Both the position numbers and the translations under genes were made by a program. The notes beneath the pieces were generated by a model that did no database searches, had not been told where the DNA came from, and saw only the letters and a program-made list of their open reading frames with translations. Below, in pieces: positions 24,394 to 53,392 of a stretch of 64,000 nt of DNA. The stretch spans positions 6,941,186 through 7,005,185 of the forward strand of contig CM082589.2 in NCBI GenBank assembly GCA_040954595.2, in the 5' to 3' direction. Numbering within the stretch: position 1 is the first letter of the stretch; every line of letters starts with the position of its first letter. The DNA comes from Balanoglossus misakiensis. Lineage: Eukaryota; Animalia; Hemichordata.

Positions 24394-24394
<1 letters not shown>

Positions 24395-24438
<44 letters not shown>

Positions 24439-24480
24439 ATCATCATCAATCATCATCATCATCATCATCATCACCACCAC

Positions 24481-24521
<41 letters not shown>

Positions 24522-24532
24522 CTATGACCATC

Positions 24533-24564
<32 letters not shown>

Positions 24565-24591
24565 CATCATCATCATTATGACCATCATCAC

Positions 24592-24657
<66 letters not shown>

Positions 24658-24723
24658 TACCATCATCATCATCATCATTACCATCATCATCATCATCATC
24701 ACCAATATCATCATTATCGTCAT
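24395..24723. repeat. (CAT)n trinucleotide microsatellite, ~330 bp with interruptions
   Basis: Directly visible. Lies just left of where homology to the TRIM array unit begins. Confidence 0.97.
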
Positions 24724-25493: not shown

Positions 25494-26254
25494 ACCTCGA
25501 ACCCAGATATAAATTTAAAAATTGTAGAAAAAGTTTGGAAAGACTTTAGATACTTAAACTGTCTTCAAATCCAATTACATGATGACCAGAGTTCACCCAT
25601 GATGCAGTGCAATTCACTGCTACAAAGTAAAATGCTGTTCCTGTTAATGATTTGGTAAATTGATTAATTGAATAATCTTCAAGACGTTCACTGGGACCTT
25701 GAAAAAAGAAAAAAAAACCTACAGAGCCCCTCCTGGTTATCATAGTGAAAAATAGCGAAAAAATCCAAAGCTTTAAAAAATTCTGAATAGGTTCAATTTC
25801 TTGCATTTATCTGTCAATCGATTTACACACATTATTAAATTCATCATATATCAGTGTGTATTAAAGCTACAATTTTTAGATCTCAAATGTTCAATTATCC
25901 TATGTCAACTTAATTGGTTGTGTTCCAGTCAATGCAATACATGCAAGCTAGTCTTTTTATCCAAAGCTTTAAAAATTTCCAACAGGTGCAACTGGTTCAT
26001 TTTTTTTTTTTTTTTTTGCATTTGTCCATAAATCTACATACTGAATCAAATTTGTATCAGTGTGTATGATATACTTCAGAACAGTTAGTTTCTTCAAGTT
26101 CCTCAATTTGGAGAGCCATTATTTACCAGAACACTGATCCCAATTGTTGAATGTCACTTTTACCCACACCCACCCACACACAAGGCATTTGGCTGTGTTC
26201 CAGTCAATGCAATACATGCAAGTCTTGTTCTGTCTGTCATTGAATACAGTGTCT

Positions 26255-28504
26255 TCACAGAACGTACACTCTGATGCAGTGGTTTTCACTGTCAGCTACA
26301 AACAGCTTCGAGGGCACACAATCAGCTACAACCATTCCTTTTGGGTAATTCAGTCCATCTTCCTTTCTATCAACACGGGATATGAATCTTCCATTGAAGT
26401 CAAACTTCTGAATGCGATGACACTGATCAGTGACATACACATATCTGTCGGGGTCAAGACACACACCAGATGCACCCCACAGCTGACCATCCCCTTTCCC
26501 CGAGATTCCAAATTTGTACAGGAACTGATCATCTGCATTGAAGACCTGAACACGGTCATTGTCACATTCAGCTACAAACAACATTCCTTGGTTGTCCACC
26601 ACCATCATGTTTGGTCCTTTGAATTCGCCATTGTTGTCACCATAGCTACCAAACGCTTTGATGTACTGACCATCCAGTGTGTACTTTCTGATACAGTGTC
26701 CTGCAGTTTTGTCTGTGTTGTTTCCAAACTTTCCATCCCAGTCTGACACATAAACAGCGCCATCTAGAGGGCTAATACAGATACCTCTTGGATTCTTCAG
26801 TTCAGGTTGTCCAAAGCATTTGATTTCATTCCCATCCTCATCACTGACAACCACTTGTTTGTTGTTCACATCTGCGATGAAGTATCTGTTATCGGCTGTT
26901 ACAGCTACATCAACTGGAAGGAAATTCTTCTCAAACTTTGTAAATTCCAACGATTTCTTCCACTTCCCATCCATGCCAATAACTTCTATTCTGTTGTTAT
27001 AAAAGTCAGCTACAACCAAATCTCTGTTTCTGTTGATGGCCAAACTGAAAAGAGTGTTGAACTCTCCTTTACCACTGCCTTTCTTTCCAAGTGTTTTCAC
27101 CAATCCTTTGATGACATCAATTTCAAACGGTGATCCAGGTATTTTCTGATCTCCTATCACCATGGTAACTTGATATTTGCCCTCCATCTGTGTGTGAATG
27201 GTTGCAGTGTGTGTGCCGTCTCCGTTGTCAATCACATCCAGATTTTCCTGCAATCCATTTGGCTTTGTGATTGTCACTTTCACTTCTTGTCTTGGGATGA
27301 CTGTTTTCCCGGATTTATCCTTGGTTGTGATCACTACATCAACGGATTCACCTTTCAGGAGACTCTTCGGAATGTTGTCGACTGTACACTCTGAGATGCA
27401 AACATCAGACTTCACCAATCCCAGATTTCCATCTTTTGTAACATTATCAGACGACACGAACTCTACCACCTCACATGTTGTGTCTGGTTTGGTATCCATA
27501 GCAACCAACTCTTCCATTTGACCCATTACAGCTTGACTGCTGGAAACCAGTTGGGATGGTACCCCATGATGCATCATGGTTTCAACATAACTGCAAGTGG
27601 TGACAAGTTTTTCATATTTCAGCTGGAGATCATCCATCTCTGCTTGGAGACCTTTGACCTCTAGGCTGCAATTCAAGTTCAACTTCTTCACAAGCTCTCT
27701 CTCCTCGTTCTCTATCTTGTCAATGAGGGCGTCCTTCTGTCTGGTGACTTTCTGTTTCTCTGCTGCACACTTTTCGGTCACATCATTACACGCAGCCATA
27801 ACCACTGCTGTATTTTTGTCTACATCTTGAGCTTTCACTTTCAACTTCTCCACCATCTCAGACATCTTCTTACTGCATTCATCAGCAACAACTTGAAGGT
27901 ATTGATGGGTGTGGTCAGGAATTCGATGATCGATTATGGTACACTCACTACAGATTGGAATCTGACAAGTTGTACAGTAGTATTTGACCTCATTTTGGGG
28001 ATGATCTTTGCAGTTTAAAGCCTTTTTTAAAACTGCTCTCCGATTCTTATCTTTCTTGTATTCTTCTACGGTCAGTATTTCGTGTGTTGGAGCACGTTTC
28101 AACTTCTTGTGAATTTTTTCAAGGCAGACATCACAGTAATACTGGTGACAATCTTCACAGAACACTGCGGCCTCAACTTCTCCACAAGATTCACACTTAC
28201 TTGATTGTTGCATGCTGGCTGCTTCTTTTCTACTCTCCACAGTTTGCAAGAGTGAATTCATGAAGAAACTGTTGGTGAGTTTGGACACTCTGCCACCAGG
28301 AAGTTGAACTGGACTCTGACAAGTAGGGCAGTGCAGCCGACCAGTTTTTGCCACCAGTTTTTCCAGACAGGGAAGACAGAAGGAATGATAACAGGGTAGA
28401 ATTTTGGGATTCTTGAACTGTTCCAGACATACAACACAGGACAAGAAATCGTCACCGATTTCATCCAGAATCTCGTCAGATGTTTTCAGTTTAGAGGCCG
28501 CCAT
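26255..28504 (-). CDS. TRIM-NHL E3 ubiquitin ligase copy 1 (TRIM2/3/56/71-like; RING, 2 B-boxes, coiled coil, filamin Ig, 6 NHL repeats), 749 aa, intronless CDS
   Basis: C3HC4 RING CVVC..CYHSFCLPC..CPTC; B-boxes CESC..CEDC..CDVC..H and CKDH..CTTC..CSEC..DH; filamin motif DNGDGTHT..GKYQVT..IPGSPF; NHL repeats (GEFKGPNMMVVDNQGMLFVAECDNDRVQVF). ATG in ATAATGG context; cccag acceptor 72 nt upstream. Confidence 0.95.
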   Translation of the reverse strand: MAASKLKTSDEILDEIGDDFLSCVVCLEQFKNPKILPCYHSFCLPCLEKLVAKTGRLHCPTCQSPVQLPGGRVSKLTNSFFMNSLLQTVESRKEAASMQQSSKCESCGEVEAAVFCEDCHQYYCDVCLEKIHKKLKRAPTHEILTVEEYKKDKNRRAVLKKALNCKDHPQNEVKYYCTTCQIPICSECTIIDHRIPDHTHQYLQVVADECSKKMSEMVEKLKVKAQDVDKNTAVVMAACNDVTEKCAAEKQKVTRQKDALIDKIENEERELVKKLNLNCSLEVKGLQAEMDDLQLKYEKLVTTCSYVETMMHHGVPSQLVSSSQAVMGQMEELVAMDTKPDTTCEVVEFVSSDNVTKDGNLGLVKSDVCISECTVDNIPKSLLKGESVDVVITTKDKSGKTVIPRQEVKVTITKPNGLQENLDVIDNGDGTHTATIHTQMEGKYQVTMVIGDQKIPGSPFEIDVIKGLVKTLGKKGSGKGEFNTLFSLAINRNRDLVVADFYNNRIEVIGMDGKWKKSLEFTKFEKNFLPVDVAVTADNRYFIADVNNKQVVVSDEDGNEIKCFGQPELKNPRGICISPLDGAVYVSDWDGKFGNNTDKTAGHCIRKYTLDGQYIKAFGSYGDNNGEFKGPNMMVVDNQGMLFVAECDNDRVQVFNADDQFLYKFGISGKGDGQLWGASGVCLDPDRYVYVTDQCHRIQKFDFNGRFISRVDRKEDGLNYPKGMVVADCVPSKLFVADSENHCIRVYVL

Positions 28505-29145
28505 TATGATGTTTAGTCGAGTCACGCAGCTTTGGTACTGGCTAGACAATGACGCATACACTATGTACACAGTCACCTGGGTACAGTTGATAACGAAAAT
28601 CCTAGAACAGGGTGACCGTTATCAGTATACCATAATCAATACACTCATATTATCATTCTGTACATGTATCCTGACCTCAATAACACTAACACACAAACTT
28701 AATTTCAGGCTTATGTACCAAATTGATTTTTAACAACCAGTCCCTCCGTTACACTGGCAATTTTGACATGAGGTATTTGAAAATGTGACAATACCTTGGA
28801 CTCACTAGTGGTGTCATGGGGTGTCAAACACATTTCATTTTATGTACACAAGAAATAAAGATGATGTTTGTGTGGATGGGAGCCCTCTATAGGCTAGTAC
28901 CTGAGCAATAAAAGGTGATTCAAGTGTTGTTTGCAATAAAATACTGAGAACAGGTTGACCTGACCTGGCACTGCCAATAACCGCATATCACTTTAAAATC
29001 TTGTATCCACAGAAATATCCAAACAAACAGCTCTGCAGGGTGTGAAACTAAAGACCACTGGACAATTTTATTGCAATTCCTATGATTTTGGTCTGGTAAA
29101 ATTAACATGTTTTTTTTTTCAGCCACAAGAGTTTCTAAGGACTTG

Positions 29146-29463
29146 ATTTTGTTTGCTGTCTTGCATGTACATGTATGCATTTATTTTTCTGGCTTGTGTT
29201 GAATTAGTTTTTTGTCAACCTCTGCTTCTGTGATTTCTCAAAATGGTGTCAATTTTGTTTGCTGTCTTGCATGTACATGTATGCATTTATTTTTCTGGCT
29301 TGTGTAGAATTAGTTTTTTGTCAACCTCTGCTTCTGTGATTTCTCAAAATGGTGTCAATTTTGTTTGCTGTCTTGCATGTACATGTATGCATTTATTTTT
29401 CTGGTTTGTGTAGAATTAGTTTTTTGTCAACCTCTGCTTCTGTGATTTCTCAAAATGGTGTCA
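29146..29463. repeat. Tandem triplication, 3 x 106 bp
   Basis: Unit ATTTTGTTTGCTGTC...AAAATGGTGTCA at 29146, 29252 and 29358. Single copy in the paralogous spacers (~34015, ~38629). Confidence 0.92.
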
Positions 29464-31038
29464 AAGCCATGATGAATAATACATGCCCTTGATGAAACCA
29501 AAATGGGTCTTATACAGTGAAGTTTTTTTTTTTTTTATTAAAAACCTAAAGGCCTAAACACAACCTTTCAGTATCTTTTTTTACCTTTACCATGCATGTA
29601 CTTGACACTAAGGCCAGAAGAACATTACCCTTCCAGGATTGAAACAGAATATAAACTTGTTGATGTTATTTTACATAATCTTCTATCCAGTGAAGAACTC
29701 AAAGGTGACAAATTGTTTTGGGCTTGAATCAAATTGAACAACTATTTTGACTCAAGTACTCAAGCTCACAGATGTTCAATTTAACAACAAAGAAATTCGT
29801 GTTTAACTTTTTTATTTTTATCACTCAATTCTTGGAAACTGACCATTATAGGTTACTTGATAATACAAATAAATGCACTGTTAAATCTCATCAAAACAGA
29901 AAGACTTGTTTTCTATTTCAACATGTTCTGAGCACTTGATTGTCACTGCAGACACAAGTTTTCTGGGATAACTTTGGTCAGAATTTTAGCAGATTGTTTT
30001 TATAAGGTGCTGATTCTCACCTCTTTTACAGATACACACCACACATTTGGTCTACATCAAACAACTATTTATGAGAAGCAACCATAAACAACAGCTCACA
30101 TGCACTATTTTGACAAAAGTTTACAGCATATTTTCTTATGAAAGTTTAACATAGGTGTATTAACCTTTGGTTATCTGTACACAGGTCAGACACAGATTGG
30201 AATTCTGTGTACACAAACTCTGCTATTAAACTCAACATCAGCATGTAGTATTGTGCATGCAACTCTGAAATCAGAAAAGAAATTCTCCTGCCAATAATCA
30301 TGACGTATGATCAATTATCATCCCCTTCAAGTCAATCACAAATTGTCCTACAGACTATCAAGGGAAAATTGTATTAAAACCACGTACACATTGACAATAA
30401 AAACCTTGCACCCAGTTCATATACATTTTAAATTTCAACGTTGAAGAAAAAAAGTGTGGGAAAAACTAAAGTCTGGAAAGATGTTAGAGACAACAACATT
30501 CATTAACTCCCAGGACTAGTATTGGATGATTACCGTACCAATAAAATGATGCTCAAATGTTACCCATGATGCAGTTGAAAATATTCTGATGCAAAGAAAA
30601 ATACTATTCTTGTTTAATATAAAGAGTGATTTGGTAAATATTTCTTAAAATCGGTCGATCTTCAATTGTGTTGACCAGGAATTAAAGAAACTAATATAAA
30701 CACTTCCTCCTTGGTGTCCAAATGAAAATGAAAATATCCAAAGCTTTAAAATTTCTAAACAGGTTCAACTGGTTCATTTTTTTTTTGCTTTTGTCCATAA
30801 ATCTATTTATATATGCTATCAAATTTGTCACATACATGTATCAGTGTGTACGATATACTTCAGAACAGTTAGTTTCTTCAAGTTCCTCAATTTGAAAAGC
30901 CATTTTTACCAGAAGACTGATCCCAATTGTTGAATGTCACTTTTACCCACACCCACCCACACACAAGGCATTTGGCTGTGTTCCAGTCAATGCAATACAT
31001 GCAAGTCTTGTTCTGTCTGTCATTGAATACAGTGTCCC

Positions 31039-33596
31039 TCACAGAACGTACACTCTGATGCAGTGGTTTCCAAAGTCAGCTACAAACAGCTTTGTGGGCA
31101 CACCATCAGCTACAACCATTCCTTTTGGGTAATTCAGTCCCTCTTCCTTTCTATCAACACGGGATATGAATCTTCCACTGAAGTCAAACTTCTGAATGCG
31201 ATGACACTGATCAGTGACATACACATATCTGTCGGGGTCAAGACACACACCAGATGCACCCCACAGCTGACCATCCCCTTTCCCCGAGATTCCAAATTTG
31301 TAAAGGAACTGATCATCTGCATTGAATACCTGAACACGGTGATTCTCAAAGTCAGCTACAAACAACATTCCTTGGTTGTCCACCACCATCATGAATGGCC
31401 CTTTGAATTCGCCATTGTTGTCACCATAGTTACCAAACGATTTGATGTACTGACCATCCTGTGTGTACTTTCTGATACAGTGTCCTGCAGTCTTGTCTGT
31501 GTTATCTCCAAACACTCCATCCCAGTCTGACACATAGACAGCGCCATCTAGAGGGCTAATACAGATACCTTTTGGATACTTCAGTTCAGTTTGTCCAAAG
31601 CATTTGATTACATTCCCATCCTCATCACAGACAACCACTTGTTTGTTGTTATAATCTGTCATGAAGTATCTGTTATCGGCTGGTTGTCCACCACCATCAT
31701 GAATGGCCCTTTGAATTCGCCATTGTTGTCACCATAGTTACCAAACGATTTGATGTACTGACCATCCTGTGTGTACTTTCTGATACAGTGTCCTGCAGTC
31801 TTGTCTGTGTTATCTCCAAACACTCCATCCCAGTCTGACACATAGACAGCGCCATCTAGAGGGCTAATACAGATACCTTTTGGATACTTCAGTTCAGTTT
31901 GTCCAAAGCATTTGATTACATTCCCATCCTCATCACAGACAACCACTTGTTTGTTGTTATAATCTGTCATGAAGTATCTGTTATCGGCTGTTACAGCTAC
32001 ATCAGTTGGTTGGAACTTCTTCTCAAACTTTGTAAAGGCCAACGATTTCTTCCACTTCCCATCCAAGCCAATAACTTCTATTCTGTTGTTATAACAGTCA
32101 GCTATAACCAAATCTCCGTTTCTGTTGATGGCCAAACTTACAGTAGTGTTGAACTCTCCTTTACCACTGCCTTTCTTTCCCAGTGTTTTCAACAATCCTT
32201 TGATGACATCAACTTCAAACGGTGATCCAGGTATTTTCTGATCTCCTATCACCATGGTAACTTGATACTTGCCCTCCATCTTTGTGTGAATGGTTGCAGT
32301 GTGTGTGCCGTCTCCGTTGTCAATCACATCCCGAACTTCCTGCAATCCATTTGGCTTTGTGATTGTCACTTTCACTTCTTGTCTTGGGATGACTGTTTTC
32401 CCGGATTTATCCTTGGTTGTGATCACCACATCAACAGATACACCTTTCAGGAGACTCATCGGAATGTTGTCGACTGTACACTCTGAGATGCAAACATCAG
32501 ACTTCACCAATCCCAGATTTCCATCTTTGGTAACATTATCAGATGGCACAAACTCTACCACCTCACATGTTATGTCTGGTTTGGTATCCATAGCAACAAA
32601 CTCTTCCATTTGACCCATTACAGCTGGACTGCTGGAAACCAGTTGGGATGGTACCCCATGATGCATCAGGGTTTCAACATAACTGCAAGTGGTGACAAGT
32701 TTTTCATATTTCAACTGGAGATCATCCATCTCTGCTTGGAGACCTTTGACCTCTAGGCTGCAATTCAAGTCCAACTTCTTCACAAGCTCTCTCTCCTCGT
32801 TCTCTATCTTGTCAATGAGGGCGTCCTTCTGTCTGGTGACTTTCTGTTTCTCTGCTGCACACTTTTCGGTCACATCATTACACGCAGCCATAACCACTGC
32901 TGTATTTTTGTCTACATCTTGAGCTTTCACTTTCAACTTCTCCACCATCTCAGACATCTTCTTACTGCATTCATCAGCAACAACTTGAAGATATTGATGG
33001 GTGTGGTCAGGAATTCGATGATCGATTATGGTACACTCACTACAGATTGGAATCTGACAAGTTGTACAGTAGTATTTGACCTCATTTTGGGGATGATCTT
33101 TGCAGTTTAAAGCCTTTTTTAAAACTGCTCTCCGACCCATATCTTTCTTGTATTCTTCTACGGTCAGTATTTCGTGTGTTGGAGCACGTTTCAACTTCTT
33201 GTGAATTTTTTCAAGGCAGACATCACAGTAATACTGGTGACAATCTTCACAGAACACTGCGGCCTCAACTTCTCCACAAGATTCACACTTACTTGATTGT
33301 TGCATGCTGGCTGCTTCTTTTCTACTCTCCACAGTTTGCAAGAGTGAATTCATGAAGAAACTGTTGGTGAGTTTGGACACTCTGCCACCAGGAAGTTGAA
33401 CTGGACTCTGACAAGTAGGGCAGTGCAGCCTACCAGTTTTTGCCACCAGTTTTTCCAGACAGGGAAGACAGAAGGAATGATAACAGGGTAGAATTTTGGG
33501 ATTCTTGAACTGTTCCAGACAGACAACACAGGACAAGAAATCGTCACCGATTTCATCCAGAATCTCGTCAGATGTTTTCAGTTTAGAGGCCGCCAT
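31039..33596 (-). pseudogene. TRIM-NHL copy 2, frameshifted by an internal 308-bp tandem duplication (truncated ORF 33596-31659; remainder 31662-31039)
   Basis: Same domain series as copy 1. 31373-31680 is repeated at 31681-31988; 308 is not a multiple of 3, giving ...VDNQPITDTS*. Confidence 0.8.
31373..31988. repeat. Exact 2 x 308-bp tandem duplication in the NHL-coding region
   Basis: The copies appear identical by eye; 2-bp (TG) microhomology at the junction, 31681-31682. Confidence 0.93.
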
Positions 33597-35699
33597 TATG
33601 ATGTTTAGTCGAGTCACGCAGCTTTGGTACTGGCCAGACAATGACACATACACTCTGTACACAGTCACCTGAGTGTAGATCATAAATAAATTCCTAGAAC
33701 AGGGTGACCTTTCTTAGCGGGCATTTGCGTTGCTAAGTCACACAGTGCTGATAAATGATCAGATAATAGTACACAATAAAAGGTGATCAAGTGTTGTTTG
33801 CAATAAAATACTGAGAACAGGTTGACCTGACGTGGCACTGCCAATAACCGCATATCACTTTAAAATCTTGTATCCACAGAAATATCCAAACAAACAGCTC
33901 TGCAGGGTGTGAAACTAAAGACCACTGGACAATTTTATTGCAATTCCTATGATTTTGGCCCGGTAAAATTAACATGTTTTTTTTTTTTCAGACAGAAGAG
34001 TTTCTAAGGACTTGATTTTGTTTGCTCTCTTGCATATACATGTATACATTTATTTTTCTGGCTTGTGTAGAATTAGTTTTTTGTCAACCTCTGCTTCTGT
34101 GATTTCTCAAAATGGTGTCAAAGCCATGATGAATATTACATGCCCTTGATGAAAGCAAAATGGGTATTATACAGTAAATTTTGTTTTCATTTTTTTAAAC
34201 CCTAAAGGCCTAAACACAACCTTTCAATATCTTTTTTTACCTTTACCATGCATGTACTTGTCACTAAGGCCAGAAGAACATGTAATACATAGTATCCTTC
34301 CAGGATTGAAACAGAATATAAATTTGTTGATGTTATTTTACATAATCTTCTATCCACTGCAGTGAAGAACTCAAAGGTGACAAATTGTTTTGGGCTTGAA
34401 TCAAATTGAACAATTATTTTGACTCAAGTACTCAAGCTCACAGATATTTAATTTAACAACAAAGGAATTCATGTTTAACCTTTTTATTTCTATCACTCAA
34501 TTCTTGGAAATGGCCCATTACAGGTTACTTGATAATACAAATAAATGCACTGTTTAAACCTCATCAAAACAGAAAGACTTGTTTTCTATTTCAACATGTT
34601 CTGAGCACTTAATTGCCACTGCAGACACAAGTTTTCTGGGATAACTTTGGTCAGAATTTTAGCAGATTGTTTTTATAAGGTGCTGATTCTCACCTCTTTT
34701 ACTGTACAGATACACTCCACACACTTTGTCTACATCAAACAACTATTTATGAGAAGCAATCATAAACAACAGCTAACATGGAATAATTTGACAAAAGTTT
34801 ACAGCACATTTTCTTATGAAAGTTTAACATAGGTGTATTAACCTTTGGTTATCTGTACACAGGTCAGACACAGATCGGAATTCTGTGTACACAGACTCTG
34901 CTATTAAACTCAACATCAGCATGTAGTATTGTGCATGCAACTCTGAAATCAGAAAAGAAATTCTCCTGCCAATAAATAATCATGACGTATGATCAATTAT
35001 CATCACCTTCAAGTCAATCACAAATTGTCCTACAGACTATCAAGGGAAAATTGTATGAAAACCACTCACTCCTGGACAATAAAAACCTTGCACCCAGTTC
35101 ATATACATTTTAAATTTCAATGTTGAAGAAAAAAAGTGTGGGAAAAACTAAAGTCTGGAAAGATGTTAGAGACAACAACAGTCATTAACTCCCAGGACTA
35201 GTATTGGATGATTACTGTACCAATAAAATGATGCTCAAATGTTACCCAAGATGCAGTGGAAAATATTCTGATGCAAAGAAAAATACCATTCTTGTTTAAT
35301 ATACAGAGTGATTTGGTAAATATTTTTTAAAATCGGTCAATCTTCAATTGTGTTGACCAGGAATTAAAGAAAATAATATAAACACATCCTCCTTGGTGTC
35401 CAAATGAAAAATGAAAATATCCAAAGCTTTAAAAATTTCCAAACAGGTTCAACTGGTTCCTTTTTTTTTTTGCATTTGTCCATAAATCTATTTACATAAT
35501 GAGTCGAATTTGTATCAGTGTGTAGGACATACTTCAGCACAGTTATTTTCTTCAAGTTCCTCAATTTGGAGAGCCTTTATTTACCAGAACACTGATCCCA
35601 ATTGTTAAATGTCACTTTTAGTTTTACACACACCCACACACAAGTCTTTTGGCTGTGTTCCAGTCAATGCAATACATGCAAGTCTTGTTCTGTCTGTCA

Positions 35700-37964
35700 T
35701 TAAATACAGTGTCTTCCCAGAACGTACACTCTGATGCAGTGATTGTTTCTGTCAGCTACAAACAGCTTTGTGGGCACACAATCAGCTACAACCATTCCTG
35801 CTGGGTAATTCAGTCCATCTTCCTTTCTATCAACACGGGATATGAATCTTCCACTGAAGTCAAACTTCTGAATGCGATCACACAAATCAGTGACATACAC
35901 ATATCTGTCGGGGTCAAGACACACACCAGATGGACCCAACAGCTGACCATCCCCTTCCCCTAAGATTCCAAATTTGTACAGGAACTGATCATCTGCATTG
36001 AAGACCTGAACACGGTGATTCACACAGTCAGCTACAAACAACATTCCTTGGTTGTCCACCACCATTCTGTTTGGTCCTTTGAATTCGCCATTGTTGTCAC
36101 CATAGCTACCGAAAGACTTGATGTACTGACCATCCTGTGTGTACTTTCTGATACAGTGTCCTGTAGTCTTGTCTGTGCCATCTCCAAACTCTCCAACCCA
36201 GTCTGACACATAAACAGCGCCATCTAGAGGGCTAATACAGATACCTTTTGGATTCTTCAGTTCAGTTTGTCCAAAGCATTTGATTACATTTCCATCCTCA
36301 TCACTCACAACCAGTTGTTTGTTGTTCTTGTCTGTCATGAAGTACTTGTTATCGGCTGATACAGCTACATCAGATGGAAGGAACTTCTTCTCAAACTTTG
36401 TAAAGGCCAACGATTTCTTCCACTTCCCATCCATGCCAATAACTTCTATTCTGTTGTTATTAAAGTCAGCTACAACCAAATCTCCGTTTCTGTTGATGGC
36501 CAAACTGTAAGGAGTGTTGAACTCTCCTTTACCACTGCCTATCTTTCCCAGTGTTTTCACCAATCCTTTGATGACATCAATTTCAAACGGTGATCCAGGT
36601 ATTTTCTGATCTCCTATCACTATGGTAACTTGATATTTGCCCTCCATCTGTGAGTGAATGGTCACAGTGTGTGTGCCATCTCCGTTGTCAATCACATCCC
36701 GAACTTCCTGGTATCCATTTGGCTTTGTGATTGTCACTTTCACTTCTTGTCTTGGAATGACTGTTTTCCCGGATTTATCCTTGGTTGTGATCACTACATC
36801 AACAGATTCACCTTTCAGGAGACTCTTCGGAATGTTGTCGACTGTACACTCTGAGATGCAAACATCAGACTTCACCAATCCAAGATTGCCATCTTTGGTA
36901 ACATTATCAGATGGCACAAACTCTACCACCTCACATGTTATGTCTGGTTTGGTATCCATAGCAACCAACTCTTCCATTTGACCCATTACAGCTGGACTGC
37001 TGGAAACCAGTTGGGATGGTACCCCATGATGCATCAGGGTTTCAACATAACTGCAAGTGGTGACAAGTTTTTCATATTTCAACTGGAGATCATCCATCTC
37101 TGCTTGGAGACCTTTGACCTCTTGGCTGCAATTCAAGTTCAACTTCTTCACAAGCTCTCTCTCCTCGTTCTCTATCTTGTCAATGAGGGCGTCCTTCTGT
37201 CTGGTGACTTTCTGTTTCTCTGCTGCACACTTTTCGGTCACATCATTACACGCAGCCATAACCACTGCTGTATTTTTGTCTACATCTTGAGCTTTCACTT
37301 TCAACTTCTCCACCATCTCAGACATCTTCTTACTGCATTCATCAGCAACAACTTGAAGGTATTGATGGGTGTGGTCAGGAATTCGATGATCGATTATGGT
37401 ACACTCACTACAGATTGGAATCTGACAAGTTGTACAGTAGTATTTGACCTCATTTTGGGGATGATCTTTGCAGTATAAAGCCTTTTTTAAAACTGCTCTC
37501 CGACTCATATCTTTCTTGTATTCTTCTACGGTCAGTATTTCGTGTGTTGGAGCACGATTCAACTTCTTGTGAATTTCTTCAAGGCAGACATCACAGTAAT
37601 ACTGGTGACAATCTTCACAGAACACTGCAGCCTCAACTTCTCCACAAGATTCACACTTACTTGATTGTTGCATGCTGGCTGCTTCTTTTCTACTCTCCAC
37701 AGTTTGCAAGAGTGAATTCATGAAGAAACTGTTGGTGAGTTTGGACACTCTGCCACCAGGAAGTTGAACTGGACTCTGACAAGTAGGGCAGTGCAGCCGG
37801 CCAGTTTTTGCCACCAGTTTTTCCAGACAGGGAAGACAGAAGGAATGATAACAGGGTAGAATTTTGGGATTCTTGAACTGTTCCAGACAGACAACACAGG
37901 ACAAGAAATCGCCACCGATTTCATCCAGAATCTCGTCAGGTGTTTTCAGTTTAGAGGCCGCCAT
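35700..37964 (-). CDS. TRIM-NHL E3 ligase copy 3, 754 aa (5-aa C-terminal extension GRHCI)
   Basis: Intact ORF with the same domains as copy 1. The TGA of the other copies is GGA here. Confidence 0.95.
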   Translation of the reverse strand: MAASKLKTPDEILDEIGGDFLSCVVCLEQFKNPKILPCYHSFCLPCLEKLVAKTGRLHCPTCQSPVQLPGGRVSKLTNSFFMNSLLQTVESRKEAASMQQSSKCESCGEVEAAVFCEDCHQYYCDVCLEEIHKKLNRAPTHEILTVEEYKKDMSRRAVLKKALYCKDHPQNEVKYYCTTCQIPICSECTIIDHRIPDHTHQYLQVVADECSKKMSEMVEKLKVKAQDVDKNTAVVMAACNDVTEKCAAEKQKVTRQKDALIDKIENEERELVKKLNLNCSQEVKGLQAEMDDLQLKYEKLVTTCSYVETLMHHGVPSQLVSSSPAVMGQMEELVAMDTKPDITCEVVEFVPSDNVTKDGNLGLVKSDVCISECTVDNIPKSLLKGESVDVVITTKDKSGKTVIPRQEVKVTITKPNGYQEVRDVIDNGDGTHTVTIHSQMEGKYQVTIVIGDQKIPGSPFEIDVIKGLVKTLGKIGSGKGEFNTPYSLAINRNGDLVVADFNNNRIEVIGMDGKWKKSLAFTKFEKKFLPSDVAVSADNKYFMTDKNNKQLVVSDEDGNVIKCFGQTELKNPKGICISPLDGAVYVSDWVGEFGDGTDKTTGHCIRKYTQDGQYIKSFGSYGDNNGEFKGPNRMVVDNQGMLFVADCVNHRVQVFNADDQFLYKFGILGEGDGQLLGPSGVCLDPDRYVYVTDLCDRIQKFDFSGRFISRVDRKEDGLNYPAGMVVADCVPTKLFVADRNNHCIRVYVLGRHCI

Positions 37965-39131
37965 TATGATGTTTAGTCGAGTCACGCAGCTTTTGGTACT
38001 GGCCAGACAATGACACGTACACTCTGTACACAGTCACCTGGGTACAGTTGATAACGAAAATCCTAGAACAGGGTGACCGTTATCAGTATACCATAATCAA
38101 TACACTCATATTATCATTCTGTACATGTATCCTGACCTCAATGACACTAACAACCAAACTCTGCATACTAGGACTGGGTAAATTTCAGGCTCGTGCACCA
38201 AATTGATTTTTAACAACCAGTCCCTCCGTTTATACACTGGCAATTTTGACATGAGGTATTTGAAAATGTGACAATACCTTGGACTAGTGGTGTCATGGGG
38301 TGTCAAACACAAACATTTCATTTTATGTACACAAGAAATAAAGATGATGTTTGTATGGATGGGAGCCCTCTATAGGCTAGTACCTGAGCAATAAAAGGTG
38401 ATCCAAGTGTTGTTGGCAATAAAATACTGAGAACAGGTTGACCTGACCTGGCACTGCCAATAACCGCATATCACTTTAAAATCTTGTATCCACAGAAATA
38501 TCCAAACAAACAGCTCTGCAGGGTGTGAAACTAAAGACCACTGGACAATTTTATTCCAATTTCTATGATTTTGGCCTGGTAAAATTAACATGTTTTTTTT
38601 TTCAGCCACAAGAGTTTCTAAGGACTTGATTTTGTTTGCTGTCTTGCATGTACATGTATGCATTTATTTTTCTGGCTTGTGTAGAATTAGTTTTTTGTCA
38701 ACCTCTGCTTCTGTGATTTCTCAAAATGGTGTCAAAGCCATAGTGAATATTACATGCCCTTGATGAAACCAAATGGGCATTATACAGTAAAGTTTTTTTT
38801 AATTTTTTTTTTAAAAACCTGAAGGCCTAAACACAACCTTTCAGTATCTTGTTTTACCTTTACCATGCATGTACTTGTCACTAAGGCCAGAAGAACATGT
38901 ATCCTTCCAGGATTGAAACAGAATCTAAACTTGTTAATGTTATTTTACATAATCTTCTATCCAGTGAAGAAGTCAAAGGTGACAATTTGTTTTGGGCTAG
39001 AATCAAATTGAACAACTATTTTGACTCAAGTACTCAAGCTCACAGATATTTAATTTAACAACAAAGGAATTCATGTTTAACTTTTTTATTTTTATCACTC
39101 AATACTTGGAAATGGCCCATTACAGGTTACT

Positions 39132-39613
39132 TGATAATACAAATAAATGCACTGTTTAAACCTCATCAAAACAGAAAGACTTGTTTTCTATTTCAACATG
39201 TTTGAGCACTTGATTGTCACTGCAGACACAAGTTTTCTGGGATAACTTTGGTCATAATTTTAGCAGATTGTTTTTATAAGGTGCTGAATCTCACCTCTTT
39301 TACAGGTACACACCACACACTTTGTCTACATCATAAAACTATTTATGAGAAGTAACTATAAACAACATAAACAACATTTGATAATACAAATAAATGGACT
39401 GTTAAATCTCAATAAAACAGAAAGACTTGTTTTCTATTTCAACATGTTTTCACTTGATTGCCACTGCAGACACAAGTTTTCTGGGATAACTTTGGTCAGA
39501 ATTTTAGCAGATATAATTATTTTTATAAGGTGCTGAATCTCACCTCTTTTACAGATACACACCACACACTTTGTCTACATCAAACAATTATTTATGAGAA
39601 GCAACCATAAACA
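39132..39613. repeat. Diverged ~240-bp local duplication in the spacer between copies 3 and 4
   Basis: TTGATAATACAAATAAATG...TTTATGAGAAG block occurs at ~39132 and ~39378; single copy in the other spacers. Confidence 0.8.
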
Positions 39614-39676
39614 AGAGCTCACATGCACTAATTTGACAAAAGTTTACAGCATATTTTCTTATGAAAGTTTAACAAG

Positions 39677-40887
39677 CAGTGTTGCAGCCAGCGTGCGCCC
39701 TTGCGACAATGACCCCAAAACTGAAGCCACGGGCGCACTTTCTGGCATACTGCGGGTCACCACGGGCGCACTCTGAGAGTAAAAAATAGCCGGCGCTAAC
39801 TGATGGGTGTACACGTACAAAGAGATTCACTTGTCACAGTTTATGACCTTACGACCTGTAATCGATACAGATAACATCTTCATAGCAAACTTGTAGCAAA
39901 CTTGAGTCCCTCGAGGGACTGTGGTTTATCGTTGAATTTGATACAGTTTACGTACACGCAGCCACCCTCTTGGGAATTGTAATAGTAATACATTGCGATA
40001 TCACGCCTATATCGGACTCAGCTGTGCAGGCAGTGAACTACCGTGACTCCAATTGCTTCTCTGAAACCGACTCTGTCCATGAGTACCAGCAGTCTCAGTT
40101 TTGTTGAAAATCCTCCCACTGAACTTTTAATGTAGATTCAACTGCTAATTTCTTGGATAAGACTCCAAAAAGACAGAGTTGGGAGTATTCGTATTACATG
40201 CTTTAGGACCCCTAGCCAGACAACAATTGATCTTGGAATGAATTCCCTAGCTTTTAGAAATACCCTATTTATTTTATATAATGGGGAACAAGTTTTCTCA
40301 AATTTACTCCTAAAATAATAAAGGACTTGAAAGAATTTAAATTAGTCATTTTTCCTCCACCCCTCCAGCTGAGCAGGTTATTTGGAATAAAGCCAGAATT
40401 CTTGTCAACAACAAGTCTGTTTTTCATCCTTATTTGTATAAAAAGGGGGGGATTATTCATCTTTCTGATAGTTTGGTAAAAACTCTAAATTTAGAAATGA
40501 AGCAGATTTAAAAGATCTTGAATGTAATCAAAATCAGAAAAGTAAAACAAAGACGCATAAACAGTAATCGGCAGTGACTTTAATTATCAGAACAATAGTG
40601 ATCAGATCTTGTCTGTTGTGAACACGTGATTTGTACAATATGTACAAAATGCAGGTTAAAGTATATGGTCATTGTGACACAGACCAAGGAGTCTGAGTGT
40701 TTTATTAAAAACATCAAATTATACAATTTAATGTGGTATGTCATTGTGTATGTATGTGTACGTTTATGCATGGACATACATGTATGCCCATGGTTTATGT
40801 TGTCCCCAAAATATGCAAAATGTCCCCAAAAATAAATAGTGCGGGGACACAGTGTCCCCTGTTATAAAATTCCTGGCTGCAACACTG
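39677..40887. mobile_element. Non-autonomous DNA transposon, 1211 bp, 15-bp TIR, 7-bp TSD
   Basis: CAGTGTTGCAGCCAG ... CTGGCTGCAACACTG flanked by TAACAAG (39670-39676 and 40888-40894). Subterminal repeats CACGGGCGCACT x2 and TGTCCCCAAAA x2. Empty site in paralogous spacers (~30145, ~34823). No transposase ORF. Confidence 0.9.
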
Positions 40888-41777
40888 TAACAAGGTGTAT
40901 AACCTTTGGTTATCTGTACACAGGTCAGACACAGATTGGAATTCTGTGTACACAGACTCTGCTATTAAACTCAACATCAGCATGTAGTATTGTGCATGCA
41001 ACACTGAACTCAGAGAAGAAATTCTCCTGCTAATAATCATGGCGTATGATCAATTATCATCCCCTTCAAGTCAATCACAATTTGTCCTACAGACTATCAA
41101 GGGAAAATTGTATTAAAACCACTCACTCCTAGACAATAAAAACCTTATACCCAGTTCATGTACATTTGAAATTTCAACGTTGAAGAAAAAAAGTGTGGGA
41201 AAAACTAAAGTCTGGAAAGATGTTAGAGACAACAACATTCATTAACTCCCAGGACTAGTATTGGATGATTACCGTACCAATAAAATGATGCTCAAATGTT
41301 ACCCATGATGCAGTTGAAAATATTCTGATGCAAAGAAAAATACTATTCTTGTTTAATATAAAGAGTGATTTGGTAAATATTTCTTAAAATCGGTCGATCT
41401 TCAATTGTGTTGACCAGGAATTAAAGAAACTAATATAAACACTTCCTCCTTGGTGTCCAAATGAAAATGAAAATATCCAAAGCTTTAAAATTTCTAAACA
41501 GGTTCAACTGGTTCATTTTTTTTTTGCTTTTGTCCATAAATCTATTTATATATGCTATCAAATTTGTCACATACATGTATCAGTGTGTACGATATACTTC
41601 AGAACAGTTAGTTTCTTCAAGTTCCTCAATTTGAAAAGCCATTTTTACCAGAAGACTGATCCCAATTGTTGAATGTCACTTTTACCCACACCCACCCACA
41701 CACAAGGCATTTGGCTGTGTTCCAGTCAATGCAATACATGCAAGTCTTGTTCTGTCTGTCATTGAATACAGTGTCCC

Positions 41778-44027
41778 TCACAGAACGTACACTCTGATGC
41801 AGTGGTTTCCAAAGTCAGCTACAAACAGCTTTGTGGGCACACCATCAGCTACAACCATTCCTCTTGGGTAATTCAGTCCATCTTCCTTTCTATCAACACG
41901 GGATATGAATCTTCCACTGAAGTCAAACTTCTGAATGCGATCACACCAATCAGTGACATACACATATCTGTCGGGGTCAAGACACACACCAGATGGACAC
42001 CACAGCTGACCATCCCCTTTCCCAAAGATTCCAAATTTGTACAGGAACTGATCATCTGCATTGAATACCTGAACGCGGTCATTGTCACAGTCTGCTACAA
42101 ACAGTATTCCTTGGTTGTCCACCACCATCATGTATGGCCCTTTGAATTCGACATTGTTGTCACCATAGTTACCGAAAGACTTGATGTACTGACCATCCTG
42201 TGTGTACTTTCTGATACAGTGTCCTGCAGTCTTGTCTGTGTCATCTCCAAACTCTCCATCCCAGTCTGACACATAAACAGCGCCATCTAGAGGGCTAATA
42301 CAGATACCTCTTGGATACTTCAGTTCAGTTTGTCCAAAGAATTTGATTACATTCCCATCCTCATCACTGACAACCACTTGTTCATTGTTCAAATCTGTCA
42401 TGAAGTATCTGTTATCGGCTGATACAGCTACATCAAGTGGAAGGAACTTCTTCTCAAACTTTGTAAATGTCAACGATTTCTTCCACTTCCCATCCATGCC
42501 AATAACTTCTATTCTGTTGTTATTAAAGTCAGCTACAACCAAATCTCCGTTTTTACTGATGGCCAAACTCTCAGAAGTGTTGAACTCTCCTTTACCACTG
42601 CCTTTCTTTCCCAGTGTTTTCACCAATCCTTTAATGACATCAATTTCAAACGGTGATCCAGGTATTTTCTGATCTCCTATCACCATGGTAACTTGATATT
42701 TGCCCTCCATCTGTGTGTGAATGGTTGCAGTGTGTGTGCCGTCTCCGTTGTCAATCACATCCAGATTTTCCTGGTATCCATTTGGCTTTGTGATTGTCAC
42801 TTTCACTTCTTGTCTTGGGATGACTGTTTTCCCGGATTTATCCTTGGTTGTGATCACTACATCAACAGATTCACCTTTCAGGAGACTCTTCGGAATGTTG
42901 TCGACTGTACACTCTGAGATGCACACATCAGACTTCACCAATCCCAGATTTCCATCTTTTGTAACATTATCAGACGACACAAACTCTACCACCTCACATG
43001 TTATGTCTGGTTTGGTATCCATAGCAACCAACTCTTCCATTTGACCCATTACAGCTGGACTGCTGGAAACCAGTTGGGATGGTACCCCATGATGCATCAT
43101 GGTTTCAACATAACTGCAAGTGGTGACAAGTTTTTCATATTTCAACTGGAGATCATCCATCTCTGCTTGGAGACCTTTGACCTCTAGACTGCAATTCACG
43201 TTCAACTTCTTCACAAGCTCTCTCTCCTCGTTCTCTATCTTGTCAATGAGGGCGTCCTTCTGTCTGGTGACTTTCTGTTTCTCTGCTGCACACTTTTCGG
43301 TCACATCATTACACGCAGCCATAACCACTGCTGTATTTTTGTCTACATCTTGAGCTTTCACTTTCAACTTCTCCACCATCTCAGACATCTTCTTACTGCA
43401 TTCATCAGCAACAACTTGAAGGTATTGATGGGTGTGGTCAGGAATTCGATGATCGATTATGGTACACTCACTACAGATTGGAATCTGACAAGTTGTACAG
43501 TAATATTTGACCTCATTTTGGGGATGATCTTTGCAGTATAAAGCCTTTTTTAAAACTGCTCTCCGACCCATATCTTTCTTGTATTCTTCTACGGTCAGTA
43601 TTTCGTGTGTTGGAGCACGCTTCAACTTCTTGTGAATTTTTTCAAGGCAGACATCACAGTAATACTGGTGACAATCTTCACAGAACACTGCGGCCTCAAC
43701 TTCTCCACAAGATTCACACTTACTTGATTGTTGCATGCTGGCTGCTTCTTTTCTACTCTCCACAGTTTGCAAGAGTGAATTCATGAAGAAACTGTTGGTG
43801 AGTTTGGACACTCTGCCACCAGGAAGTTGAACTGGACTCTGACAAGTAGGGCAGTGCAGCCGACCAGTTTTTGCCACCAGTTTTTCCAGACAGGGAAGAC
43901 AGAAGGAATGATAACAGGGTAGAATTTTGGGATTCTTTAACTGTTCCAGACATACAACACAGGACAAGAAATCGTCACCGATTTCATCCAGAATCTCGTC
44001 AGATGTTTTCAGTTTAGAGGCCGCCAT
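41778..44027 (-). CDS. TRIM-NHL E3 ligase copy 4, 749 aa
   Basis: Intact ORF with the same domains as copy 1; cccag acceptor 72 nt upstream of the ATG. Confidence 0.95.
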   Translation of the reverse strand: MAASKLKTSDEILDEIGDDFLSCVVCLEQLKNPKILPCYHSFCLPCLEKLVAKTGRLHCPTCQSPVQLPGGRVSKLTNSFFMNSLLQTVESRKEAASMQQSSKCESCGEVEAAVFCEDCHQYYCDVCLEKIHKKLKRAPTHEILTVEEYKKDMGRRAVLKKALYCKDHPQNEVKYYCTTCQIPICSECTIIDHRIPDHTHQYLQVVADECSKKMSEMVEKLKVKAQDVDKNTAVVMAACNDVTEKCAAEKQKVTRQKDALIDKIENEERELVKKLNVNCSLEVKGLQAEMDDLQLKYEKLVTTCSYVETMMHHGVPSQLVSSSPAVMGQMEELVAMDTKPDITCEVVEFVSSDNVTKDGNLGLVKSDVCISECTVDNIPKSLLKGESVDVVITTKDKSGKTVIPRQEVKVTITKPNGYQENLDVIDNGDGTHTATIHTQMEGKYQVTMVIGDQKIPGSPFEIDVIKGLVKTLGKKGSGKGEFNTSESLAISKNGDLVVADFNNNRIEVIGMDGKWKKSLTFTKFEKKFLPLDVAVSADNRYFMTDLNNEQVVVSDEDGNVIKFFGQTELKYPRGICISPLDGAVYVSDWDGEFGDDTDKTAGHCIRKYTQDGQYIKSFGNYGDNNVEFKGPYMMVVDNQGILFVADCDNDRVQVFNADDQFLYKFGIFGKGDGQLWCPSGVCLDPDRYVYVTDWCDRIQKFDFSGRFISRVDRKEDGLNYPRGMVVADGVPTKLFVADFGNHCIRVYVL

Positions 44028-46319
44028 TATGATGTTTAGTCGAGTCACGCAGCTTTGGTACTGGCCAGACAATGACGCATACACTATGTACACAGTCACC
44101 TGGGTACAGTTGATAACGAAAATCCTAGAACAGGGTGACCGGCGTTATCAGTATACGATAATCAATATACTCATATATCATTCTGTACATGTATCCTGAC
44201 CTCAATGACACTAACAACCAAACTCCGCACATTAGGACTGGGTGCAAACTTCATTTTAAGTTCGCGTACCAAAATGTGATTTTTACAATGTAACAACCAG
44301 TCCTCTCACAACATGTCTTTTACCGTTTTTACCATTGGACTAGCGGTGTCATGGGTGTATGTAAAACACATACCGGTAGATGTCATTTTCTGTATACAAG
44401 AAATATCTGAAAGATGATGTTTGTATGGATGGGAGCCCTCTATAGGCTAGTATTTGAGCAAAAATGACCCTCAATAAGAAACAAAATCAGTCTTACATGC
44501 GACAGAAATTCAATAACTAGTTCACACTCTGTAAAAATATTCCAGATATCCAGAAATTTAAAAAAAATATGTGGATTCTTGCATGGAAAAAAACCATTAC
44601 ACTGTGGTGTCTCAGGGATAGCTAATTACTCGAGAGGACTATTACTTCAAAAAGTATGACATCAATCGCCGGCTGATGATGTCATAAGTGTAGATTGCGT
44701 TGAATCGAACATTTCCAAACGTGACGTCATCACTGATTGTTGATGTCATAGATGTGGGTTACTGGTTGTGTCTGGCGGATTTCGGTCAATCTTGTATTGT
44801 CAATTCTTGATTGCTGACACAACCAACGCACAGTATCAAGATACACTTTGGTGGGTGGGTGGGCTAAAGTATAGGTGAAAAGACTGGAAAATGTGACATC
44901 ATCACCAACTCCAGTGATGTCATAGAATAGATATCTGCAGGGTAATGTATTTTTTATAGTATTGATGATACTTAAAAATCTTGGAAATGACACTGACCTG
45001 CTGAAAAGCTAGTGTCTGTTTCCTGTGTTTTCTGTGGACAATGTTAGGTTTTGAAAAGGTTACAGTGGTCCACCATGGATGATTATGATGAGACTTGCCA
45101 AATTTTTTGAATGCCAACATCTAGATGAAACACTGAGTTTCTGCTTTTTCAATTGTCATATGTTCTTTCAAATATACAGGTACATAATAGCAGATACATG
45201 TACCTTCTATTGTAGAGCACCGTTACCAATGGCAGTACCCATTACGTCAACTCAAAGGCTATTTCTCTTATTTATTGCATTTCATGTAATTTTAATCCAG
45301 TTTCTGATTGTATCTACTATATCTACTCAGAGATATTGGCAATGTTATCCGGATGACTTTCATGTAATATGGGAAAATATTAACTTTCATTTAAATTAAA
45401 AACTGAAGACGCAGCAAAAAATTACACATTTCCCCATATAACAAAGATGGATTGACAATGTAACAGTATGTTTGTATTAGGGCACAATTAGGGGAGGGGG
45501 AGGGGAGCCTCAAACAGCATTGCACAAAACTGAACTGAATAGAAAGTGAGAGTGTGTGTGTGTGATTAGTGTAAAGGCTTTTTACTGGGAAATAGGACAA
45601 GGACTTTCTGACAAAGGACGTATTTAACATTGCAAAACATGATAGAATGTTAACACACTAATTACTTATATCAGCTACAAAATAATAATAACAGGACAAT
45701 TACTTAAATTAATATCAAAAGGACCGCATTAGCATGATAATTACTTGTATATTTATGCAATTCAGTCACAGTTCTGACAGGAATTCCTGGGAGAACACCG
45801 AAGGTCTGTAGTGTGATGTATCCATTGGAAACAACAAAGGAACATCTGAAGGAGAAAGATTGGGCAATTTGCAACACCTTCTAAAATGGTTTGGACTGTA
45901 TATAGCATTGAGGAGTATCTTTTTGTTCTGAGGAAAACAATGCAAAATAGAACAACTACGACCAATATGGTTGAAACTGGATGAGTAATAATAGTCAGAT
46001 GATGACTTGCGATTTCTGGTAAAACTATTATTAGTGTTACAGTATATGTTCATGTATGTTGATTTTAGTGACTGTGTCATCATTCAAATCTCAGTTTCCA
46101 ACTGGGTTGACACTAAGTTAACTCACGACTAGACTGGGTTAGCACTGGGCTAGCCCAGTTAGCACCTCACACTGTTGAAAATGCCAGCACAATTGTAACA
46201 CTGGGTTAGCTCAGGGTTAGCTAAATGGAATCCAGTGACATCAGTATTGTCAGGTACTGGTGTTGGAGTCCAATATAGACCACAGCTCAATAATAGATGA
46301 TTTTACACTCATATAAAGC

Positions 46320-51518: not shown

Positions 51519-51907
51519 TTTTTACCCCATTTTGTAAAGTCGCTGCAATGGTCCAAAAAAATATATTTCCCATCTTTCCTGCCAATTTTTTTAAAAGCAT
51601 GGTATTGGAATCTGAAATGTTTTCTTGACCTGGGGAAGCTCTCATGAAAATATGCCAATGAATGAATTATATGTATAAGAAAAGAAACTAGTTGGGTTTT
51701 GGTGGGTGGGTGGACAATTTCCATTTGTGGTAGTTTTCTTGTGCATCTTGCAAGTTAAAGGCACACAAAGGCTTGCTTAAATTTTATTAACAAATATTTT
51801 AAAAAGTAAAAAAGTCTATGTACAAAAATTACAAATTATATTTAAAAGATAAAAATATATATATTTCTTTACAGATTTAGTTTCCATGCTCACTTTGGAA
51901 ACAGAAG

Positions 51908-53392
51908 ATGGCAGATGGGAAGGGGTCCCCTGAGGATCCTTTCAAGCAACTTGAGAATGACTTGTTTAAGTTTGAACTACCGGAGCGCAGGCTGTTCTCA
52001 GAGTCACACAGAGAGTATCAAGTCCCTGCTGTATACACAAGCGATGACAGGTGGGGCAGGACTTCGCAGTTCATTTTCGAGGACTGCACGAGCATCCTCA
52101 AGTCTCTGACGGATAAGACGTACTCGCTGACCGTCAAGTGCAAAACCCTGCCGTCGATTCCGGAGTTTATCCGGAGGGACAGGCGGGCGGCCAGGGTGAC
52201 GCAGCTCTTCCTGGCGGTCAACCGGATCAAGGAGATACCCGACGGCATGGGGGCGTTGGTCCAGCTCCGGAACTGCAGCCTGGACCGCAACAAGCTGAGG
52301 TCGCTCAAGAGCGAGTTCGGACTGCTGACTTCCATAGAGAATCTGGACATCGGTAACAATCAGTTCAAGATGGTGCCGAAGGAAATCTTCATGTTGAAAT
52401 CCTTGAGGGTTCTTCGTCTCTCCGTTAACGAAATCGAAGAGTTGCCCACCGGCTTTGCCCAACTCAAGCAGCTGGAGAATCTCCGGATTGGTTCAAATCG
52501 ACTGGAGCGTCTACCGGAAGACTTCGGCGAATGCCACAGTTTGAAGTACTTGAAACTAGCCAGTAATCGCTTCAGGGAGTTCCCGAATGAGATCTTGAAG
52601 TTGCCCAATTTGGAGCAGCTCATGATATCCACCAATAAAATACAGGTGATACCGATGGAGCTTTTCGATAATCGAAAGTTGCAGATGTTTCACGCGGAGG
52701 GGAACCCTCTGCAGCAACCTCCGCTGGCCGTCGTCAGCAAAGGACTCGGCAATATTCGCGAGTACTGGCAGGCGTACAAGAAAGGCGACATCAGAGACGA
52801 CCGTCTACGGGTCTTGTTTCTGGGCGCCACGGGAGCCGGGAAGACGACTCTGTGCCACGCCCTCGTCCGGGGTCCGACGGCCGACGACCCGGAGAGGACG
52901 GTCGGGATAGAGCAGCATCAGTACGAGCTGCGCGACGTGAAGATGACGCTGTGGGACTTCGCCGGGCAGGAACTGTACTACAACACGCACCACGTGTTCA
53001 TCACGTCCGGCGCTCTCGTCATCCTCGTCGTCAACCTGGAGGAGTACAATCGCGACAACTGCAACAACAACGGCAAGAACGTGACAAGTAGTTACGACAC
53101 ACTGGTCGGGATGTGGATCGACCACATCGCCATGCAAGTCCCAAACGCCGTCATTCTGGTCGTGGGCACCCACATGGACAAAGTGGACGATTCTAAACAA
53201 CGGATTGAAGACATCCTGGAAAAAATTCAAAAACATCGGGACACACAAAGAGATAATATGAAGATCAGAATCACACATCTGGAAGAAAGAATTGGTATAT
53301 TGGATAAGGACACAGAGGAAGGTGACCACCAACTTATTCTCATACAAAAGCAGATTGACAACCTGACCAGAATGGCAGAACAAGATCTACAG
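51908..53392 (+). CDS. MFHAS1-like ROCO protein, coding exon 1 (LRRs + ROC GTPase)
   Basis: About 8 LxxLxLxxNxL repeats with a GNPL..PP cap; G1 GATGAGKTT, G2 ERTVGI, G3 WDFAGQ, G4 GTHMD. Acceptor tttctttacag ends at 51874; donor CAG|gtgaat; 1485 nt, phase 0. Confidence 0.92.

Follow-up and report, generated by a model that had tools for sequence, protein, structure and literature searches.

The genome of the acorn worm Balanoglossus misakiensis carries a tandem array of four TRIM-NHL genes on the minus strand of a 64,000-nucleotide stretch of contig CM082589.2 (the window; 41% GC, zero N). Comparison of these genes, termed copies A to D, supports well that the ligand face of the predicted NHL propeller is under positive (diversifying) selection and that the part from the RING to the filamin repeat is conserved. 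A ligand face selected for change on otherwise near-identical proteins makes it likely that the copies form a set of intracellular sensors. By analogy with TRIM5alpha and its like, they are probably pathogen sensors (we assign this a probability of about 0.57) that differ in specificity and would ubiquitylate what they bind.

Variable positions and selection on the NHL propeller

By their architecture, the predicted proteins are assigned to the TRIM-NHL class C-VII. Copy A (26255-28504, minus strand) is a single open reading frame of 749 amino acids (aa) comprising a RING (residues 23-62), two B-boxes, a coiled coil, a filamin repeat (372-461) and the NHL part (467-749). The C3HC4 RING (PF00097) spans residues 23-62 in all four copies. 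Its eight zinc ligands C23, C26, C38, H40, C43, C46, C59 and C62 are invariant across 25 aligned sequences. Two B-box stretches (PF00643) are followed by the coiled coil, which was judged from sequence and spacing. Filamin repeat and six-blade NHL propeller are present, the propeller of copy B being incomplete as assembled. Pfam yielded no SPRY match in the window proteins; the NHL propeller stands in the C-terminal place of a B30.2/PRY-SPRY domain. The NHL part of copy A (26258-27106, minus strand) was modelled as a confident six-blade propeller with a predicted local distance difference test score (pLDDT) of 96.4. Its best structural matches are the NHL domains of TRIM2 and TRIM3 (Z 41, root-mean-square deviation 1.6-1.8, 269-271 residues aligned). 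The LIN41-RNA complex follows with Z 38.2, a deviation of 1.8 and 265 collinearly aligned residues. Sequence identity to TRIM2/3/LIN41-type structures is only 25-32%. The top loop of blade 3 is extended by an insert of some 11 residues (588-602 in each copy; 26700-26760, minus strand), five positions of which vary among the copies. This insert marks the subfamily and is missing in some hemichordate paralogues (tree labels P0019, P0020, P0022 and P0034).

Throughout all copy comparisons, one unit of a 308-bp repeat was removed from copy B. An original prediction, made from the letters of the window, had counted roughly 26 variable columns in the RING-to-filamin part and roughly 58 in the NHL part of the four proteins. 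Both numbers are exact: 26/466 and 58/283 columns vary (Fisher p=8e-10). Codons with synonymous changes only are not enriched in the NHL part (16/283 vs 19/466, p=0.37). This means, the NHL excess lies in amino-acid changes. Along the gene, divergence at fourfold sites does climb, from 0.025 to 0.053. Columns with three or four different residues had been placed mostly in two loop classes of each blade, and indeed 13 of the 14 such NHL columns are found in top-face loops and none at the 56 bottom-loop positions. The nine sets of loop motifs listed in the prediction are all present; those of copy B in blades 4 to 6, however, had been read from another frame.

For zebrafish LIN41, Kumari et al. 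(PMC5908797) named 13 residues that touch RNA. Counted by hand along the 6fpt sequence, all 13 are located at five offsets from blade anchors: two before and one after the blade Pro, and one or two after the blade Asp. Over six blades, this defines 30 face positions. Among the four copies 18 of these 30 vary, compared with 40/253 other NHL positions (p=5e-7) and 28/132 other loop positions (p=7e-5). At least three residues occur at 9/30 face positions vs 5/253 others. Of 100,000 random sets of 30 loop sites, not one reached the 30 changes observed at the face set. When the set was slid out of register by at least five residues, the changes fell from 30 to 0-8. Thus, the variable sites are neither scattered nor buried, but concentrated at the equivalents of the LIN41 ligand face.

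Selection was tested with our own implementations, not with PAML or HyPhy. The pairwise ratio of nonsynonymous to synonymous substitution rates (dN/dS) ranges from 0.30 to 0.43 in the N-terminal part and from 0.73 to 1.13 across the entire NHL part. With fixed site classes, dN/dS at the 30 face sites reaches 5.1-5.6, or 4.1-4.8 when multi-nucleotide changes are allowed (p<=6e-6, all three topologies). Elsewhere in the NHL part, it amounts to 0.88-0.95 for other top loops, 0.56-0.64 for bottom loops and 0.35-0.40 for strands. Tree-free comparisons of the face sites gave 3.2-5.7 in six of six pairs (p 0.0003-0.015; the pairs are not independent). Sites with dN/dS above 1, which the prediction needed, were therefore found. 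Its picture of a constant ubiquitylation module with a variable sensor is partly supported overall: N-terminal constraint and selection on the face hold.

Proposed role, ligands and recurrence in other acorn worms

If the copies act as pathogen sensors, their coiled coil would dimerise the proteins, as in TRIM5 and TRIM21 and by analogy with TRIM56. The NHL faces would bind a repetitive, multivalent foreign surface, and clustering on the target would activate the RINGs. The target would then be delivered to the proteasome or to autophagy, or the ubiquitin chains would start signalling. Gene conversion would homogenise the effector half, and selection would keep the heads different. Copies would be born and lost, with copy B as an example of loss.

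The face itself gives hints at the ligand. Its 30 positions comprise 4-5 Lys/Arg and 5-10 aromatic residues, and the isoelectric point of the NHL part is 4.9-6.5. By hand mapping, no basic contact of LIN41 (eight in total) is retained throughout the four copies. Since the face is rich in aromatic residues and not basic, a protein or glycan seems a likelier ligand than a LIN41-type RNA hairpin, which is predicted to be an unlikely one. Single-stranded RNA, as bound by Brat, may be a ligand. The basic Arg/Lys pocket with which TRIM71/LIN-41 orthologues hold tri-loop RNA hairpins was not found in the array copies. By this RNA-pocket test, they are predicted not to be TRIM71 orthologues. In LIN41, most RNA contacts are identical across species (PMC5908797), unlike in the array.

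The same data bear on a different conflict. The heads might recognise endogenous selfish elements, i.e. RNAs or proteins of transposons or endogenous viruses, or fast-evolving germline targets. This would place the conflict within the genome and extend the role of TRIM-NHL proteins as RNA regulators. It would suit the coincidence of the selected positions with the RNA-contact positions of LIN41 and the report that distinct RNA-binding solutions evolved among NHL domains (PMC5908797); furthermore, the selection signal is compatible with any arms race. The neutral to acidic propellers with their few Lys/Arg and many aromatic residues at the face and the lack of any LIN41 basic contact common to all copies speak against it, so that we regard it as unlikely.

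The closest relatives of the array copies are proteins of Ptychodera flava (62-67% identity), Glandiceps talaboti (54-56%) and Saccoglossus kowalevskii (about 40%), found among 70 matches from 7994 candidates scored. A tree of 53 proteins was built by a quick method. It includes 49 of the 70 matches, leaves out most N-terminal fragments and non-TRIM matches, and was calculated without canonical TRIM2/3/45/71 sequences. Three clades stand apart in this tree, one made up of the four window copies, one of ten proteins from P. flava and one of eight from G. talaboti. Their support values in the Shimodaira-Hasegawa-like approximate likelihood ratio test (SH-aLRT) are 100, 99 and 100, respectively. 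Mean entropy at the 30 face positions compared with bottom loops is 1.52 vs 0.59 in the P. flava clade, calculated for eight of its ten proteins, as two with a broken or missing NHL were left out. It is 1.31 vs 0.20 in the G. talaboti clade (eight proteins) and 1.26 vs 0.49 in a second G. talaboti clade (five proteins; p<=4e-6 throughout). Site variability is correlated between the window copies and these clades (rho 0.20-0.32). Judged from the aligned proteins, the same positions are hypervariable in two further acorn worms, each with expansions of its own.

This recurrence also touches the possibility that the proteins are targets and not sensors. They could perform one fixed cellular job via the top face, which diversifies to escape a pathogen antagonist, or the extra copies could be decoys. 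Escape yields the same dN/dS pattern, and the NHL-like domain of TRIM56 binds host adaptors such as TRIF as well as viral proteins (PMC13236048). Radical substitutions at 18 of the 30 positions in the centre of the face, repeated in separate expansions, fit poorly with a single host partner, however, and many paralogues are not needed for escape. Therefore, this explanation appears quite improbable.

In addition to the acorn-worm clades, four paralogue-like proteins group with a Dysidea avara protein. In these, 21/22 face-type positions vary vs 112/250 others, at the protein level and with 9 of 12 anchors found. Clusters with the same architecture exist in cnidarians, molluscs, echinoderms and sponges, which carries no information on their variability. 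It is tempting to speculate that marine invertebrates from sponges to acorn worms maintain large, fast-turning NHL-TRIM repertoires as variable intracellular pathogen receptors, with the same approximately 30 face positions as hypervariable binding site. Such repertoires would parallel the B30.2 TRIMs of vertebrates and predate them. This wider proposal is tentative, and we consider it somewhat doubtful.

Several points weigh against the reading of the array copies as pathogen sensors. Positive selection reveals a conflict, not the opponent, and the tie to immunity is putative. The dN/dS test rests on only four sequences, and the variable columns had already been seen before the 30-site set was fixed. 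Top and bottom faces were set from the secondary structure of the model and the repeat register, not from atomic coordinates. The evidence from P. flava and G. talaboti consists of protein variability alone, not of dN/dS. Part of the array may be inflated by assembly. In many active RINGs, the last Cys is followed by an Arg. This residue is a Gln in all four copies and also in those clades of P. flava and G. talaboti that are closest to them, which makes the strength of the ligase uncertain. Finally, plain M2a fits significantly better than M1a in the NHL part (twice the log-likelihood difference, 2dL, 52-60), and it does so in the N-terminal part as well (2dL 15-27). The N-terminal signal vanishes once multi-nucleotide changes are allowed (p=0.45), which means that plain site models overcall here. 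As a stand-alone test, plain M1a/M2a was therefore rejected. Because of this signal and because the two halves of the gene favour different trees, extra controls were added. With multi-nucleotide changes, the NHL signal persists (2dL 23.4, p=8e-6). Without the 30 face sites, the NHL part has no M2a signal (p 0.12-0.26; 0.26 with multi-nucleotide changes).

Regulatory motifs were considered as evidence, too. Matches to motifs resembling the interferon-stimulated response element (ISRE) number 21 vs 6 expected. This candidate was rejected, since the excess is the duplication itself: eight matches are coding-sequence repeats of two sites and six are spacer copies of two sites. NF-kB-like motifs have no match within the array and were likewise discarded as evidence.

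Structure of the array and integrity of copy B

The array with its homologous spacers extends from 25958 to 44464. On the minus strand, the genes start at 28504 (copy A), 33596 (copy B, 31039-33596), 37964 (copy C, 35700-37964) and 44027 (copy D, 41778-44027), and the coding region of each is one open reading frame. Copies C (754 aa) and D (749 aa) are intact like copy A. Copy C is devoid of the stop codon common to the other copies, and its protein ends five residues later (35700-35717, minus strand). The spacers are 2534, 2118 and 3813 bp long and 93-97% alike where aligned. No further copies or fragments of the TRIM-NHL gene were found elsewhere in the 64-kb window. Two spacer regions contain copy-specific tandem repeats, 29146-29464 (3 x 106 bp, 99%) and 39131-39614 (2 x 249 bp, 90%), which indicates that local tandem duplication is common in the array. 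After a long TCA microsatellite (24394-24723), the stretch 24790-25827 matches the array spacers at 65-80%. Perhaps it marks a former boundary of the duplicated unit or is a repeat element common to both regions.

Only three of the four proteins assumed in the original prediction are intact. In copy B, 31375-31682 is exactly repeated as 31683-31990 in the NHL region (2 x 308 bp, 31375-31990). This duplication, which had been overlooked, shifts the frame and leads to a stop inside blade 4 (at 31659), so that a 645-aa protein with an incomplete propeller remains. Copy B is either a pseudogene or an assembly error. DNA contigs from three runs (one sample, one study, possibly the source of the assembly) were searched for the duplication junction. 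None of the 24 pieces listed (74 more matched) bridges it, and the loose ends at the junction run on as an unduplicated gene. Of the 24 differences from copy B listed among those contigs, 14 agree with the sequence of copy A, C or D, and the other ten are new. This suggests additional paralogues or alleles, though not as independent support.

The copies have exchanged sequence. Informative sites cluster along the gene in a mosaic manner (18 pattern changes vs 25.8 expected, p=0.006), and within the coiled-coil region, copy pairs are identical over stretches of 219-351 bp. In addition, 694 bp comprising the 3' end and flank of copy B (30430-31123) are identical to the 3' end and flank of copy D (41169-41862). 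This identity is the result of a recent conversion, an unequal crossover or an assembly chimera. The A-B spacer differs from the C-D spacer at 68/2316 positions, and both comparisons with the B-C spacer yield more differences (134/2084 and 142/2089). Such a pattern is as expected from duplication of a two-gene block.

These features raise the question of whether constraint on the surface loops has merely been relaxed because the duplicates are redundant, with the variability inflated by conversion, clustered mutation or mixed-haplotype assembly. The mosaic sites, the 308-bp duplication, the B/D tract, the spacer pattern and the false plain-M2a signal in the N-terminal part would all be in line with this. 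Relaxation predicts a dN/dS of about 1, however, while 4-5 was observed at the face, and no bottom-loop column reaches three states. Neutral mosaic-genealogy simulations with and without multi-nucleotide changes fall short as well: the observed pN/pS ratio, 3.1, was reached in 0/400 simulations under five settings and in 3/400 under a sixth. Moreover, the B-C spacer is similar to the other spacers and unlike the outer flanks, which counts against two haplotypes having simply been joined. Should some copies be alleles, the evidence for selection would still stand, then as balancing selection. Hence, relaxation and artefact are largely refuted as an explanation and have very little probability left.

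Known systems and neighbouring genes

With the class C-VII or Subfamily C proteins TRIM2, TRIM3, TRIM71/LIN-41, Brat and Thin, the array copies have RING, B-boxes, coiled coil, filamin repeat and six-blade NHL propeller in common. They differ in being tandem and species-specific and in their positively selected ligand face. FinTRIMs and TRIM5alpha (class C-IV) are also characterized by clustered lineage-specific expansion, a near-identical RING/B-box part and a positively selected C-terminal binding surface (finTRIM: PMC2657112). In their case, this surface is a B30.2 domain, whereas the array copies have an NHL propeller with a filamin linker. FinTRIMs were discovered as virus-induced transcripts (PMC2657112). 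TRIM56 combines a RING with an NHL-like propeller that binds viral RNA, and both are required for restriction of flaviviruses (PMC13236048). In contrast to the array, it is a single human gene with a disordered linker instead of a filamin repeat. The fungal NLRs NWD/HNWD of Podospora are an example of a beta-propeller whose interaction surface is under diversifying selection at a small number of sites in each repeat, and family members exchange sequence (PMC4986451). They have near-identical WD40 repeats within a gene and a NACHT scaffold, whereas the array blades are diverged and exchange occurs between paralogues; homology is not implied. TRIM32 binding to influenza PB1 was not kept as an analogue, since the coiled coil is the part responsible.

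The closest relatives in P. flava, G. talaboti and S. kowalevskii are named TRIM2-like, TRIM45-like or TRIM71-like. Their hypervariable positions coincide with those of the array in P. flava and G. talaboti, but the names are automatic annotations, and the literature searches made revealed no study of these proteins. Marin (2012) related tandem TRIM expansions to a possible role in response to external aggression and described Branchiostoma-specific Subfamily C genes (PMC3503706). A genome-wide table lists an amphioxus gene labelled TRIM71 with a Ka/Ks of 1.41 (PMC5787515). In the purple sea urchin, 140 genes are annotated as TRIM, and sea-urchin phagocytes increase the expression of TRIM45/71-like genes upon ultraviolet B irradiation (PMC13043383). 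In primates, TRIM3, 32, 45, 56 and 71 are not among the 17 TRIMs listed as positively selected, and the two selected sites of TRIM2 are reported to be outside known domains (PMC3845644). The whole words TRIM and NHL do not occur in a Biomphalaria paper. Among the full-text matches listed, which cover neither most subscription journals nor any supplements, no paper reports positive selection on the NHL face of expanded invertebrate TRIMs.

TRIM-NHL proteins are familiar as conserved factors that regulate development and RNA, and the diversified antiviral TRIMs described to date use the vertebrate B30.2 domain. The array is a case of finTRIM/TRIM5-like diversification on an NHL scaffold, a type not met in the literature searched. 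Selection on the ligand face provides the invertebrate TRIM2/3/45/71-like expansions, whose role has been unexplained so far, with a testable purpose and points to the residues that could be exchanged. It also bears on how animals without adaptive immunity widen recognition inside the cell. Annotation or expression of such copies should not be read as a developmental function of TRIM71.

A ROCO-type gene (51881-55926) lies roughly 8 kb away from the array and is encoded on the other (plus) strand. Only two long coding segments are visible: an open reading frame with leucine-rich repeats (LRR) and a Roc GTPase (51908-53404), followed by one in which a Gln/Pro-rich insert interrupts COR-A/COR-B. 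In some invertebrates, genes of the LRR-Roc-COR type are candidates for a role in immunity. At the end of the window (60617-64000, minus strand), a low-complexity open frame of at least 1128 codons, rich in Ser, Pro, Lys and Glu and without a Pfam match, continues beyond the window.

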